Shown: positions 1,807-30,415, counted from the first letter of the stretch. The stretch is DNA of 64,000 nt from an uncultured Candidatus Melainabacteria bacterium (GCA_947090755.1 CAMUPF010000008.1:3901-67900), one strand, 5' to 3'. Notes: a model not told the origin generated them from the letters alone. Made by a program: numbers and translations.

Positions 1807-2947
1807 TTAGCGCTTGATACATCTTATAAGAGTTCCGCCGGATGTCCGTTCTTTAAGCATTCTGTCACCAGGCGCAAAGCCTATATAATAAGCTTTGTCC
1901 GCAGAAACGATTGTACTTGACCAGTATGAATTTGTGCCGTCCTCCAGTCCCCATAGTGTTCTGTTGAAAAACATTGAGGATAATTCTTCTATGTTTGGCA
2001 GCCTGCTTTCGCTGTCAAGTTGCTGGCACAATCGACCGGCATTTATTTGATTTCCCGCGGGAGCATTTTGAGGAAGCGGCAATGGCGCTACGACGACGGT
2101 ATCTGTCGGATAAAGCGCTGTAATTGCACCCATATCCTTGCCAAAAGTATTAGGGCCTTTGTTGCCGTTTAAGTCAAAAACAAAGTTTGCACACATCGTA
2201 GGCTGTGTGTATTCTCCGGTATTGGCAAGCCCCTGATTTGAGTTATGAAACCCGCAATTAGGATTATAGTAAACAACAATACTTTCGCCGTTTTGAGTTT
2301 CAAACGCCGCGGCTTTCGTATTTGTCTGGTTATACACGAAACTTGCTCCGTTAACGCTGTTTACGTGAGAACCCGAGAACATTGAATTTAAATCTGCCAG
2401 TGTTTTTGGAAACGATGAAATGGTTTGACCTTTTAGTGTTGTGAAAGTTGAGGTAATTCCGCAATCTGCGAGGTGTTCAGCGTCACATATATTGTTAATT
2501 TTAAGAACTTTTGCTAACCCTTCTGTAACGAAAGTTTCTGCGGCAGTGTCAGTTGTATCGTTTAATGTTCCGTAGCCGTTGAGTGATGGCATTAATGCGA
2601 TGGCCTGAGAGAATCTTGCATAAAGTGCCTTGCGTTGTGTGTTCCATGTGCGTTCGTTAATGTTACCCGTCAAACTAGGCAGCGTAATGGCCGCAACCAC
2701 GCCGATTATGGTTAAGGACAGCAGGATTTCGGCCATGGTAAAGGCCAAGCCGAGCAGAGCCACGGAGCAAGGCTTGCCTTGCGAAGAGACGAGCGTGCGA
2801 CGGTCAAGACCGCGCTCTTGACCGCTAACGCGAGCGGTGGCGTTTAACGCGAGGCGCAGTACCGGCGTTGCGTTAGCGTGCTCGGCTTGCCCCCCCCCCC
2901 CTACTGTACAGGCCCATATTACAAGGGGTTTCAGCTTTTGTGTTCAT
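1807..2947 (-). CDS. type IV pilin-like (prepilin) protein with DUF1566/Lcl-like C-terminal domain, paralog 1; frame broken at homopolymer tract
   Basis: ORF 1807..2763 carries A/FTMAEILLSLTIIGVVAAITLPSL (Phe+1, Glu+5 prepilin motif) and a C-terminal RLPNIEEL..YWSST..IRCIKR. SD GGAGG plus ATG at 2947 is one frame off and stops at 2873-2875. The pilin frame itself is open from 2943 downward. Confidence 0.7.
2764..2889. repeat. GC-rich hairpin-rich 126-nt block inside the leader-coding region of pilin paralog 1
   Basis: Stems gcaaggc/gccttgc (2767-2782), ggtcaaga/tcttgacc (2802-2823) and gctaacgc/gcgttagc (2824-2831 with 2870-2877). GC content is far above the flanks. No counterpart in paralogs 2 and 3. 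Confidence 0.6.
2890..2901. repeat. homopolymeric C12 (G12 on the coding strand) tract
   Basis: Counted directly: c at 2890, ten c at 2891-2900, c at 2901. Confidence 0.95.
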
Positions 2948-2976
2948 ATTATATACCTCCAAATTTTTATATTTTT

Positions 2977-3005
2977 ATTTTAAACTACGTTTTAGGCGCT
3001 GTCAA
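2977..3005 (-). promoter_or_regulatory. sigma70-like promoter for pilin paralog 1
   Basis: Minus strand reads TTGACA (3005-3000), 17-nt spacer, TAAAAT (2982-2977), about 30 nt upstream of the ATG at 2947. Confidence 0.5.
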
Positions 3006-3143
3006 GTAATTGATTAATTAGTGGCTTTTTTACATTTATTATGTTATATTGTTATTATCGCGTTGAACGCCGGAGGAACTTTTTACAAATCCATTCGTCA
3101 TAATGATTAAATGAATGGAAGTTGTGGAGGAAGAATTAAATTT

Positions 3144-4361
3144 ATGATGAAGAAAATGAAAACTACTAAATCTATTATTACATTGTTATTGGGATTGGCG
3201 TTAACGCTGCCATCAGCGGCTTTTGCTGACGCCCCTCAGGATTTATACGATTATGTTTGGAAAAATGTTAATTCTAAATATGTTGACCAGACTAATAACG
3301 AACAAAATTGGGCAAGATGGCGCCATAAGTACGACGCATCTATGAAAACACAGGAAGATGCTTACGTTGCTATCGCGACAATGCTTGCAAGTTTAAATGA
3401 CCCTTACACAAGATTTTTAGACCCGAAAGAATTTGCGGAGGAAACAAGTTCTATTCAAGGCTCTCTAAAAGGTATCGGGATTCAAATTGCGGTTAAAGAC
3501 GGCAAACTTATGGTAATTGCTCCGTTAGAAGGAACACCGGCTGAGCGTGCAGGGATTATCGCCGATGACGAAATTTTGGAAATCGACGGTGTAAGTACAA
3601 AAGGAATTACCGTTGATAAAGCGGCAGATAAAATTAGAGGTAAAGAAGGTACTTCTGTTAACCTTTTGATTAAACGTAAGGATAATGCGCCGAAAGTTTA
3701 CAGAGTTACCCGTGAAAATATTGAAATTAAATCAATTTCACAAAAAACTCCGCTTGATACTGTTGTTCCGCAAAATATGGGTTATATCAAGATTAGTTCA
3801 TTCTTGAGCCGTAATTTAACAAAAGAATTTACCAATGTTCTTGCGCATTCACTGGATAAGCAGGGTTATATTATTGACCTTCGTTCCAATCCGGGCGGAT
3901 TGCTGGATAATGCGATTAATATCTCGGATATGTTCTTACCGGGCGGTGTAATCGTAAGTACGGTCGACCGTGACGGTTACAAGGTTTCACAGCGCGCAGC
4001 AAGAACTGTGTATACAAGCAAACCGCTAGTAGTCTTGATTAACAAGGGCTCGGCGTCTGCAAGCGAAATCCTTTCCGGAGCGCTCAAAGATCACGGACGT
4101 GCTATAATCGTTGGTGAAAAATCTTTTGGTAAAGGCCTTGTTCAAGAGGTTAACCATCTGCCTATGAATTCAGGTATGAATATTACTATTCAAAAATATT
4201 TAACACCTAACGGAAGCGATATCCATAAAAAAGGTATCACGCCTGATGTGGTTGTTGAATTGACAGAGGATAATATTAAGAATAAAGACGACGTTCAATT
4301 GAAAAAAGCAATTGATGTCCTCGGAAATATGATTAAAGAGCAAGCTGTGGCAACCAGATAA
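3144..4361 (+). CDS. ctpA: C-terminal processing peptidase, family S41 (PDZ-containing)
   Basis: Signal peptide MMKKMKTTKSIITLLLGLALTLPSAAFA. PDZ region GIGIQIAVKDGKLMVIAPLEGTPAERAG. Catalytic GSASASEI and SFGKG motifs. The ORF is open from 3111, but the ATG at 3144 follows GGAGGA. Confidence 0.85.
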   Translation: MMKKMKTTKSIITLLLGLALTLPSAAFADAPQDLYDYVWKNVNSKYVDQTNNEQNWARWRHKYDASMKTQEDAYVAIATMLASLNDPYTRFLDPKEFAEETSSIQGSLKGIGIQIAVKDGKLMVIAPLEGTPAERAGIIADDEILEIDGVSTKGITVDKAADKIRGKEGTSVNLLIKRKDNAPKVYRVTRENIEIKSISQKTPLDTVVPQNMGYIKISSFLSRNLTKEFTNVLAHSLDKQGYIIDLRSNPGGLLDNAINISDMFLPGGVIVSTVDRDGYKVSQRAARTVYTSKPLVVLINKGSASASEILSGALKDHGRAIIVGEKSFGKGLVQEVNHLPMNSGMNITIQKYLTPNGSDIHKKGITPDVVVELTEDNIKNKDDVQLKKAIDVLGNMIKEQAVATR

Positions 4362-4364
4362 CCC

Positions 4365-4529
4365 GAAAAAATTTCGTTTGCGAAATTTTTGAGTGACATT
4401 TAGACAGCGCAGCCATGCGCGGCCCAAGGTTCAGCGCGAGCGAGCGGAGTGCGAAGGACGGAAGTCCGAAGGCACGTTTTCCGCGAGTCGAGCAAGACAG
4501 CGGGGCGAAAATGGCGGAGTACTGCTTTT
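4365..4529 (+). repeat. GC-rich repeat element, copy E2 (degenerate)
   Basis: AT hairpin gaaaaaatttcg/cgaaattttt (4365-4390), core tttgagtgacatttagacagcgcag (4388-4412), 3-prime end ggcggagtactgctttt (4513-4529). Shares these blocks with copies at 48750 and 50825. Confidence 0.65.
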
Positions 4530-28920: not shown

Positions 28921-28930
28921 AGTAATACTC

Positions 28931-29215
28931 CTACTCAATTACTGCTAATGCATCTTTTATTGATAAAATTTTATAATTTGTGTCGTCTAATTTTACTTCA
29001 GTACCTGAATATTTTGCGTAAAGAACGATATCGCCGACTTTAACATCAAGCGGTTCTCTTTCGCCTTTGTCGTTCATTTTACCAAGTCCGACTGCAACAA
29101 CTTCACCTTTTTGCGGTTTTTCTTTAGCGCTTTCAGGGATAAAAATTCCGCCGGAAGTTTGTTCAGTATCTTCAATAACTTTAATTACAATTCTTTCTCC
29201 TAATGGTTTCAACAT
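28931..29215 (-). CDS. groES: co-chaperonin GroES
   Basis: [35 protein letters not shown]. 94 aa, directly upstream of groEL. Confidence 0.95.
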
Positions 29216-29296
29216 ATATTGCTCCTTCTTTTCTTACACATATCATAATATAACGAAAATCACAAAATATGTATATCCTTAATGAAAAATTAAGGA

Positions 29297-29325
29297 TTGA
29301 CTAAAGTGAAAAAATAATACATAAT
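29297..29325 (+). promoter_or_regulatory. sigma70-like promoter of pilin paralog 2 (conserved with copy at 63933)
   Basis: TTGACT 29297-29302, 17-nt spacer, CATAAT 29320-29325. The same architecture and downstream leader recur at 63933..64000. Confidence 0.6.
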
Positions 29326-29396
29326 AATTAATAAAGAAAGGCAGGCTGATCCTGTTCTACAATCGAACCCGAGTGAAACTTGGGAGAAAGGAAATT

Positions 29397-30415
29397 ATGA
29401 AAAACAATATTGTAAACATTTTGACAGGGGGGGGGGGCCTCTCTTAACAGGCTTCACTATGGCGGAGATACTTCTGTCATTAACAATAATCGGTGTGGTT
29501 GCGGCGATAACGCTTCCGTCGCTGACAGGCAACATTAACGAACGCACATGGAACACCCAGAGAAAAGCACTTTATGCCCGTATGAGTCAGGCGATTGCCC
29601 TAATGCCGGCGTTGAACGGTTACGGAACTTTGACAGAGGGCAACGAATCAACGTCAGCCGTCGACACCGCTGCCGAAACTTTCGTCACGGAAGGCCTTTC
29701 AAAAGTTCTCAAAATTAATAATATTTGTGACTCCGACCACCTCGCGGATTGCGGTATACCTACCCAATTTAATAATATCGGTGGAGATGTTGTATCTACC
29801 TGGCCTCAAACTTTTGTTGCTTTGAACGGGATGTTTAACGGTTCCTATGAAAACTATGATGGTTCAAGTGTAAATGTTATTTGGACTTATTCACAAACAG
29901 ATACGAAAGTCGCGGCATTTGAAACCGCAAATGGAGAAAGCGTTGCTGCGTATTATAATCCTTATTGTGTAGGTAATTTTAATGAAACAAATGAATATTA
30001 TATTCAACCTAAAGTTTGTGCAAATTTTATATATGACTTGAATGGATCTAAAGGACCTAATACTGTTGGGAAGGACATTGGGTTTATGACGGTATTTTAT
30101 CCTACTGATTCAGTTGTAGTTGCGCCTCATCCTTCGGTTAGACTTGCGACAAACCAGCGGGTTGTGCAGGCTGAGGCAGGGGCGGCCTGTTTCGCGCTGG
30201 ATAATGAAACAAGAGTTCCCAATATTCATGAGATTGCGTCTATGTTTACGAATAGGCTGTTAATGAAATCTACAATCACTGAAACAGGAACTAATGGGAT
30301 TTGGTCGGGTTCAAAATATTCTGCGTCTTATGACTGGTTATTCAACTGGGCTTGTGGAAAATGTATGTTGAAAGACCATGCTTGGACAGGAAATGTTTGG
30401 TGTATAAATCGTTAA
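29397..30415 (+). CDS. type IV pilin-like (prepilin) protein with DUF1566/Lcl-like C-terminal domain, paralog 2; leader interrupted by G11 tract (OFF frame)
   Basis: RBS GGGAGAAAGGA, ATG 29397, MKNNIVNILT, then G11, then TAA at 29445. With 12 G the frame reads GGGGPLLTG/FTMAEILLSLTIIGVVAAITLPSL and joins ORF 29459..30415. C-terminal RVPNIHEI..IWSGS..VWCINR. Confidence 0.8.
29427..29437 (+). repeat. homopolymeric G11 tract
   Basis: Counted directly: 29427-29430 plus 29431-29437. Confidence 0.95.

Follow-up and report, generated by a model that had tools for sequence, protein, structure and literature searches.

The stretch of DNA analysed here, referred to as the window, comprises 64,000 nucleotides from an uncultured Candidatus Melainabacteria bacterium (GCA_947090755.1 CAMUPF010000008.1:3901-67900). 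The organism belongs to the Gastranaerophilales, uncultured non-photosynthetic relatives of cyanobacteria from human and animal guts. Five long G/C homopolymers, designated T1 to T5, lie in two prepilin-like genes and in three genes of a surface-glycan locus: C12 at 2890-2901, G14 at 12411-12424, G13 at 18454-18466, G15 at 19565-19579 and G11 at 29427-29437. A run-length census of the whole window reproduced exactly the coordinates and lengths given in a preliminary description of this DNA, which had also reported no other G/C run longer than about 6 nt; indeed, G6 at 26037 is the sole further run of six or more in the 64 kb. The histogram of G/C runs falls from 15975 single positions over 3526, 538, 115 and 6 runs of length 2, 3, 4 and 5 to one run of 6, and then jumps to lengths 11-15. 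The longest A/T runs measure 8 nt and the window is moderately AT-rich, with a GC content of 39.4%. A first-order Markov model fitted to the window predicted 2.8e-3 runs of 11 or more, as compared to the five observed, in line with the previous estimate that such runs are very unlikely by chance. The five tracts are thus over-represented with respect to base composition. Ordinary housekeeping and flagellar genes elsewhere in the window (RecJ, GroEL, S41 protease, phosphoglucomutase, prephenate dehydratase, GlyS, FliN, FliP, FliR) carry no tract.

Reading frames were judged by three-frame translation combined with in-silico changes of tract length. Contingency loci are recognised by a homopolymer or short tandem repeat inside a reading frame or promoter, of at least about 8 nt in the case of G/C; all five tracts, with 11-15 nt, lie inside a reading frame. 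Their location within coding sequence, as previously claimed, became apparent for T1 and T5 only after this frame analysis, since both fall upstream of the mechanically listed open reading frames (ORFs), within the codons of a leader peptide that follows a Shine-Dalgarno sequence and an ATG. T3 and T4 each break one gene into two ORFs and T2 is in frame. In the present assembly, T1, T3, T4 and T5 are therefore off and T2 is on. Joining the two open frames at each tract resulted in one recognisable protein according to Pfam, NCBIfam and fold results.

Prepilin-like gene 1 (1807..2947, minus strand) starts at an ATG at 2947 within the signal GGAGG-N8-ATG and encodes a leader of type B, MNTKAETPCNMGLYSR-Gly(n). 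T1, a G12 on the minus strand, begins 46 nt past this ATG and occupies leader codons 16-20. It is out of frame by +1, and the gene is in frame with G11 or G14. In the G11 version, the frame crosses a GC-rich repeat-element insert of 128 nt (2763-2890), which is read in frame, and enters ORF 1807-2763 at ...LGLA/FTMAE, where the slash marks the cleavage motif LA/FTMAE at approximately 2745. The mature protein showed a weak C-terminal match to the Lcl_C/DUF1566 domain. Prepilin-like gene 2 (29397..30415, plus strand) starts at ATG 29397 with a leader of type A, MKNNIVNILT-Gly(n)-PLLTG/FTMAEILLSLTIIGVVAAITLPS. T5 starts 30 nt past the ATG, covers leader codons 11-14 and, as G11, is one G short and out of frame; G12 or G9 puts the gene in frame. 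With G12 the product is MKNNIVNILTGGGGPLLTG/FTMAEILLSLTIIGVVAAITLPS..., in which a class III (prepilin) signal leads into a pilin-like protein of 339 aa. The listed ORF 29459-30415 begins at the methionine inside the FTMAE motif. The features of a class III signal, namely a G or A at the end of the leader, F at +1, E at +5 and a hydrophobic helix of about 20 residues, are present in both ...LLTG/FTMAEILLSLTIIGVVAAITLPS (T5) and ...LGLA/FTMAE (T1). The prepilin-like N-terminus matched the GspG, GspH and ComGE models with E values from 5e-5 to 9e-5, below the curated cut-offs. A third prepilin-like paralog (40431..41408, plus strand), which served as internal comparison, has the short leader MKRFFTVKSAA/FTMAE and no tract. 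The preliminary description had proposed switches within pilin genes; the tracts do belong to pilin-like genes, but they are located in the prepilin leader and not in the gene body. Prepilin peptidase and assembly genes of pili or type II secretion systems were not found among the window ORFs scanned. A Gastranaerophilus single-cell genome was reported to contain pilA, pilB, pilC, pilT and pilD (PMC5877343).

T2, T3 and T4 lie in a surface-glycan locus on the plus strand (7690..24149) with genes for GT2 glycosyltransferases, an RfbF-like nucleotidyltransferase, CDP-glucose 4,6-dehydratase, RfbH, an HpcH-like aldolase, an SDR protein, an AroB-related enzyme, an ALS-like ThDP enzyme, a cytidylyltransferase and an epimerase. 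T2 is a G14 in frame (ON) and encodes Gly 202-206 of a membrane O-acyltransferase (11807..12979, plus strand, 390-aa ORF; PF01757 Acyl_transf_3, 5e-24), whose profile match at 21-360 covers the tract. In silico, G13 truncates the protein to 208 aa and G15 to 274 aa. T3 is a G13, one G short and out of frame (OFF), in a gene for a left-handed beta-helix sugar O-acetyltransferase of the maltose-O-acetyltransferase/WbbJ-like type (17938..18695, plus strand; the likely true start is ATG 17974). With G14 or G11 an ORF of 252 aa is obtained, G14 joining 17938-18492 to the next frame. Since the hexapeptide repeats sit downstream of the tract, the OFF state loses the catalytic part.

T4 is a G15, one G too long and out of frame (OFF), in a glycosyltransferase gene (18673..20197, plus strand). 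G14 or G17 gives an ORF of 507 aa, G14 joining 18673-19617 to 19523-20197. Searches of Pfam and NCBIfam gave no match for this protein. Its AlphaFold (AF2) model (pLDDT 78, pTM 0.75) had 8csf_A as top Foldseek match (E 7e-9, TM score normalised to the target 0.64), followed by KrkA and KpsC, at a sequence identity of 10-14% to the solved structures of WbbB/KpsC type. The predicted model thus resembles the GT99/GT107-type catalytic domain of WbbB and KpsC, i.e. the WbbB/KpsC/KrkA (retaining beta-Kdo transferase) fold. The tract corresponds to residues 299-305, a low-confidence loop in the model. Homologues at about 40% identity are without the glycine run and a homologue at 69% has an interrupted GCGG, so the run is not a conserved structural feature. 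A gene for a PseF/KdsB-like cytidylyltransferase (17258-17971) lies 0.7 kb upstream of the T4 gene, with the T3 gene in between.

Concerning the glycan itself, the region 8631-17971 begins like a pathway for CDP-3,6-dideoxyhexoses, with matches to CDP-glucose 4,6-dehydratase (3e-146) and RfbH (9e-201), and the AroB-related enzyme is a putative sugar-phosphate cyclase (TIGR04425). As judged from these gene assignments, the enzyme set suggests an unusual sugar, possibly branched or ulosonic. A tyrosine recombinase of 180 aa that consists of the catalytic domain only (24144-24686, minus strand; PF00589 1.6e-24) directly follows the locus and occupies the same position in the sister species described below. 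It adjoins two divergent GT2 genes flanking a helix-turn-helix regulator (21297-24149). An invertible segment tied to this recombinase was looked for, and only weak AT-rich inverted repeats, none of them convincing, were seen.

The repaired T4 protein gave access to a sister species with about 80% amino acid identity, for which nine loci from nine samples were analysed. The T4 ortholog, 80% identical, is present on dozens of contigs. Gene order in the glycan locus is as in the window, and G tracts occupy the orthologous codons of all three genes. The acyltransferase tract (T2 ortholog) is G14 in four samples, giving 380 aa, and G13 in one, where the gene was called as 198 plus 182 aa. The acetyltransferase tract (T3 ortholog) is G14, giving 240 aa, in seven samples; the other two samples have G13 and G19, respectively, and a split gene in both cases. 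The nine T4 loci had been picked through the 316-aa OFF product; the list of alleles was drawn from a 90% identity cluster and is not limited to that product. It contains the ON form of 489 aa on 27+1 contigs and short forms of 316 aa on 34+1, 313 aa on 10, 314 aa on 2 and 315 aa on 2 contigs. Tract lengths at the orthologs of T2, T3 and T4 thus differ between samples by numbers of nucleotides not divisible by 3, and intact as well as truncated alleles occur. Between the two species, the T4 gene is 73% identical downstream of the tract as compared to 79.5% upstream, and the downstream part of T3 is conserved over 75 residues at about 87% identity, estimated by eye. The open and conserved out-of-frame 3' parts of T3 and T4 therefore speak for switches and not for decay. 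A fourth tract, G13 or G12, lies at the 3' end of the gene for the AroB-related enzyme in the sister species (approximately 6103-6115 in L081-L089) and alters the C-terminus of the product (363 or 387 aa); both this tract and an extra HAD-hydrolase gene are absent from the window (compared at 14437-15516).

Relatives of the window pilin-like protein were found in a set of species-representative genomes, where it has more than 448, all from metagenome-assembled genomes (MAGs) of Gastranaerophilales/Melainabacteria, one of which is probably mislabelled as Fusobacterium. The best match in this set was 67% identical. In a protein collection, more than 2000 cluster representatives matched at E <= 1e-60. 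The MAG deposited as 'Fusobacterium sp. NALB_7963_5' (JAMPIJ01) contains many Gastranaerophilales pilin copies with the same poly-G leaders and is probably taxonomically mislabelled. A scan of Joint Genome Institute (JGI) metagenomes by DNA pattern yielded three pilin leaders only, and a protein-based scan of these metagenomes with the repaired T4 protein gave no match.

Eighty pilin loci (L001-L080; 499 kb, 40% GC) from six related genomes were then considered together. The histogram of their G/C runs is bimodal: on the short side, lengths 4 to 9 occur 779, 111, 11, 3, 4 and 2 times, and on the long side lengths 10 to 16 occur 6, 9, 21, 30, 11, 4 and 1 times. Almost all long runs lie at two conserved leader contexts, after AAAGGA or GGAGG plus ATG. 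The leader of type A (as for T5) reads M-K-[KN]-[KR]-x-V-[SN]-I-x-x-Gly(n)-xLLT[GA]/FTMAE and that of type B (as for T1) M-K-N-L-E-A-E-N-P-C-x-M-G-I-L-x-R-Gly(n)-.... A tract was present at most 700 nt upstream in 76 of 103 pilin N-termini; for most of the others the contig ends there, sometimes in long poly-C or poly-G, and about 10 are truly without one. A tract of G10-G16 at the same leader position is found in about 85-90% of the pilin-like family in the six genomes, and the housekeeping genes that flank the pilins in these 499 kb have no long G/C runs. The complete 2.02 Mb HiFi chromosome OZ007029.1 has at least 21 tract-bearing pilin-like genes. The scale given in the preliminary description was accordingly too small, the feature being lineage-wide and affecting a family of pilin-like genes of which each genome has dozens.

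Tract length in these leaders also varies between samples of related species. A pilin with 100% identical protein sequence in four samples had G13, G13, G11 and G14, and a second identical pilin had G11 on 7 contigs and G12 on 2. Seven samples contain P0040, a long-leader allele of 375 aa that is in frame. Tracts are present in the HiFi chromosome as well as in SPAdes and MEGAHIT assemblies of Illumina data. A few long G tracts outside pilin leaders and glycan genes appear intergenic or promoter-proximal (L001 6652-6663; L030 614-624); among the non-pilin tracts of the related genomes, one G11 directly precedes an ATG and one G12 follows a terminator-like hairpin. In a related species, a full-length MutS (859 aa, domains I-V) is encoded immediately upstream of a tract-bearing pilin gene (L090-L092, 2938-5542).

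In many pilin paralogs, the tract is separated from FTMAE by 45-552 nt composed of recurrent modules resembling translated palindromic miniature repeats. Examples are ...CHPELVSGS..RNKFGMT, LRERAEAQSEN and TLVLRLALNATARA..GKPCSVALLGLA, the last being the insert of the window. Most inserts have a length divisible by three, and 72 of 76 genes keep an open frame from tract to cleavage site, including across 130-552 nt. The 128-nt window insert (2763-2890) belongs to these elements and is a dispersed repeat, copies of which with 77-88% identity occur in other genomes on both strands. Some leaders contain a duplicated FTMA reminiscent of a target-site duplication, as if elements inserted at the pilin start. 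A structured RNA was considered for the 128-nt insert and rejected, its fold energy being no better than that of shuffled sequences (z = -0.73).

The frames of the pilin tracts were tallied for 58 non-redundant genes, with the ATG proximal to the Shine-Dalgarno sequence taken as start. Ten genes are in frame (ON), 39 are exactly one G too long (ON+1) and 9 are two G too long (ON+2; chi-square p = 3e-7). The modal tract length follows the leader type, with G12, G13 and G14 where the in-frame length is G11, G12 and G13, respectively. Because the modal length shifts with the leader type, it is the frame rather than the length that is preferred. The ON/ON+1/ON+2 counts were 1/15/5 for the HiFi chromosome and 3/9/0, 1/6/1 and 2/6/1 for three Illumina MAGs, with a weaker pattern of 4/2/1 in a fourth. 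An origin of the ON+1 excess in a single sequencing technology was therefore rejected.

We attribute these observations, with a probability of about 85%, to simple-sequence contingency loci, the five tracts acting as independent on/off switches of surface genes. The core of the preliminary description, multiple independent slipped-strand switches in pilin-like and polysaccharide genes, agrees with the orthologous tract positions, the length differences that are not multiples of 3 and the coexistence of intact and truncated alleles. Each G/C run would be hypermutable, with slipped-strand mispairing at replication adding or removing a G. The resulting frameshift would switch the surface gene concerned on or off without affecting the remaining ones. 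In the two prepilin-like genes, where the run sits 30-49 nt past the start codon inside the cleavable leader, the wrong length would yield a peptide of 16-47 aa and the right length a full prepilin to be cut by prepilin peptidase after G or A, in front of FTMAE. In the glycan locus, mid-gene runs in three modifying enzymes could give up to 8 glycan variants. Host immunoglobulin A, and phages with pili or glycans as receptors, are plausible selective agents. Replication slippage and reversibility within a clone are expected by analogy with the tracts of Campylobacter, Neisseria and Haemophilus.

Several points weigh against this attribution. No second assembly or read set of the window's own strain was found in exact-protein look-ups with the acyltransferase, RfbH, GroEL, P0002 and P0010, and we therefore infer variation at its five tracts from orthologs and paralogs. 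Homopolymers of 11-19 nt in metagenome assemblies are uncertain by about 1 nt and contigs often break there, so that individual ON/OFF assignments carry limited weight. What the differences between samples demonstrate is mutability on the time scale of populations, as distinct from high-frequency reversible switching within a clone. A check for mismatch-repair genes had been proposed; for mutS, the related genome encodes a protein with all five domains, opposite to the situation in Campylobacter and Helicobacter. Hypermutability does not, therefore, rest on loss of MutS, so that tract length alone must account for high rates. Finally, most pilin tracts are OFF in one particular frame (39/58 ON+1), which unbiased switching would not predict. 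This bias may reflect mutational bias together with selection against expressing most paralogs, or leaky expression through +1 recoding on the G-run. The contingency-locus reading also does not account for the repeat elements placed in frame within the leaders.

The frame bias is the starting point of an alternative that we regard as unlikely, in which the poly-G run is a programmed slippery site and stuttering of RNA polymerase or a +1 ribosomal frameshift restores the frame in some of the product. Such recoding would replace or add to switching at the DNA level, and alleles one G too long would be expressed at a low level instead of being silent. On a G-run, tRNA-Gly could re-pair in any frame, and the run itself resembles a Shine-Dalgarno sequence, by analogy with prfB. 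The 39 ON+1 genes as opposed to 10 ON and 9 ON+2 would be accounted for, as would the constant frame across leader types of differing lengths and the recurrence of the bias in the HiFi chromosome, in three of four Illumina assemblies and within a single species (in-frame length G10, G11 observed in 7 of 9 contigs). The glycan tracts, in contrast, are free of an ON+1 bias, most of them being in frame, pilin alleles with the correct frame also occur (10/58, and P0040 in its seven samples), and mutational bias with selection against ON cells could yield the same skew. Extending this idea, one may speculate, though we consider it doubtful, that the pilin-like family is held deliberately one G too long, that dozens of adhesin-like pilins are made at low, tunable levels via recoding, and that the leader doubles as a landing pad for in-frame miniature repeats. 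If this were true, recoding combined with repeat-bearing leaders would be a new architecture for surface diversity in an uncultured gut phylum.

As compared to contingency switching, it is much harder to reconcile with the data that the genes of T1, T3, T4 and T5 are decaying pseudogenes with fixed frameshifts and that their tracts are incidental mutational hot spots, which appears very improbable. Four of the five window genes and most pilin paralogs in every genome examined are indeed out of frame. Nevertheless, the downstream frames are intact and conserved between species close to the upstream level, the tract-to-cleavage frame is open in the 72 of 76 genes noted above, other samples frequently carry these genes in the ON form, and tract position is conserved across the family of more than 2000 proteins. 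We give hardly any credence to a sequencing or assembly artefact, i.e. runs that are not in the DNA and stem from two-colour Illumina chemistry or homopolymer errors. Some Illumina contigs do end in C24-C52 or G19, and in one older assembly tracts are interrupted by 'nn' gaps. The window tracts, though, are internal with unique coding sequence on both sides, and tracts recur at the same codon across independent samples, assemblers and the HiFi chromosome, in which the tracts persist instead of collapsing as an artefact removed by more accurate reads would. Deleting a tract moreover restores no frame, the flanks requiring about 12-14 nt. A functional poly-glycine linker, suggested by the in-frame reading GGGG(G) in a leader or surface loop, is just as implausible, since lengths vary by 1-2 nt and not by codons, GGG is the sole Gly codon used and distant homologues are without the glycines.

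Contingency switching by homopolymers has a close counterpart in the poly-G phasome of Campylobacter jejuni (capsule, lipooligosaccharide, flagellar glycosylation), likewise a set of intragenic G/C homopolymers in surface-glycan genes of a gut bacterium. There, independent switches produce combinatorial surface states, tracts are mostly G8-G11 and the species is not known to have mismatch repair of the MutS/MutL type. In the lineage studied here, by contrast, tracts are G10-G16, MutS is present in a related genome, and most tracts belong to the pilin-like family and not to glycan genes; with 5 tracts in 64 kb, the density equals or exceeds that of C. jejuni. Combinatorial surface states of this kind are treated in PMC8437040. 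The position of the pilin tracts is shared with Neisseria pilC (poly-G in signal-peptide codons) and opa (CTCTT in leader codons), where a repeat in a cleavable leader similarly leaves the mature protein unaffected by tract length. The opa genes form a multigene family whose copies switch independently, with few ON together. The differences are the class III (prepilin peptidase) leader, found here on the pilin-like proteins themselves, a family that is several-fold larger, with at least 21 tract-bearing copies in 2 Mb, and leaders that often have in-frame repeat-element insertions. General aspects of repeat biology in Neisseria are covered in PMC5320596.

The enzymes of T2 (Acyl_transf_3) and T3 (hexapeptide) represent the same two classes as the known phase-variable glycan O-acetyltransferases with an intragenic repeat switch. 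Examples of these are meningococcal OatWY and OatC and Haemophilus OafA; lineage and glycan are different here. In Bacteroides, invertible promoters control multiple capsule loci. The ecological logic, stochastic variation of numerous surface structures in a gut commensal, is the same, whereas the mechanism there is site-specific inversion and not slippage. The term phasevarion-like, which had been used in the preliminary description, had to be abandoned. A phasevarion (PMC5909438) is the regulon of a phase-variable DNA methyltransferase (mod, hsdM or hsdS), and none of the tract genes encodes a DNA methyltransferase or a restriction-modification component according to Pfam, NCBIfam and fold assignments. 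The only common element is the switching of a gene by a simple repeat; here, surface structural and enzymatic genes are switched directly. In the literature on Melainabacteria, Gastranaerophilales and Vampirovibrionia we found no report of repeat-mediated phase variation. The mechanism is classic, and we found no previous report of its use in this uncultured lineage, which employs it on a very large scale. The system is set apart by its lineage, by the class III prepilin leaders of a very large family, by longer tracts in combination with MutS, and by the frame bias and repeat-laden leaders.

Two further observations concern the flagellar genes and the related assemblies. The FlhA (FHIPEP) ORF at 55773-57251 (minus strand), near fliN, fliP and fliR at 47208-50814, matches only positions 310-653 of the 657 of its profile, and the N-terminal membrane domain is not encoded upstream of it. 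In related MAGs, Illumina contigs stop precisely at tracts, with spurious terminal runs of G19-C52, and the older assembly has the 'nn' gaps mentioned above (L035, L040, L073, L086, L088, L089; L011, L014, L025, L064). The tracts therefore lead systematically to fragmented MAGs and to gene calls that are partial or frameshifted in this group.

To our knowledge, almost nothing is known about the dealings of Gastranaerophilales with their host or with phages. The present analysis indicates that these bacteria invest heavily in stochastic surface variation, with dozens of independently switchable pilin-like genes per 2 Mb, probably encoding adhesins or lectins, in addition to switchable glycan-modifying enzymes, i.e. 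a phasome at least as dense as that of Campylobacter. It explains the fragmentation of MAGs and the many frameshifted or partial annotations in this group. Tract lengths can be used as markers of within-host population dynamics in metagenomes, and the lineage provides a test case for poly-G hypermutability in the presence of MutS.

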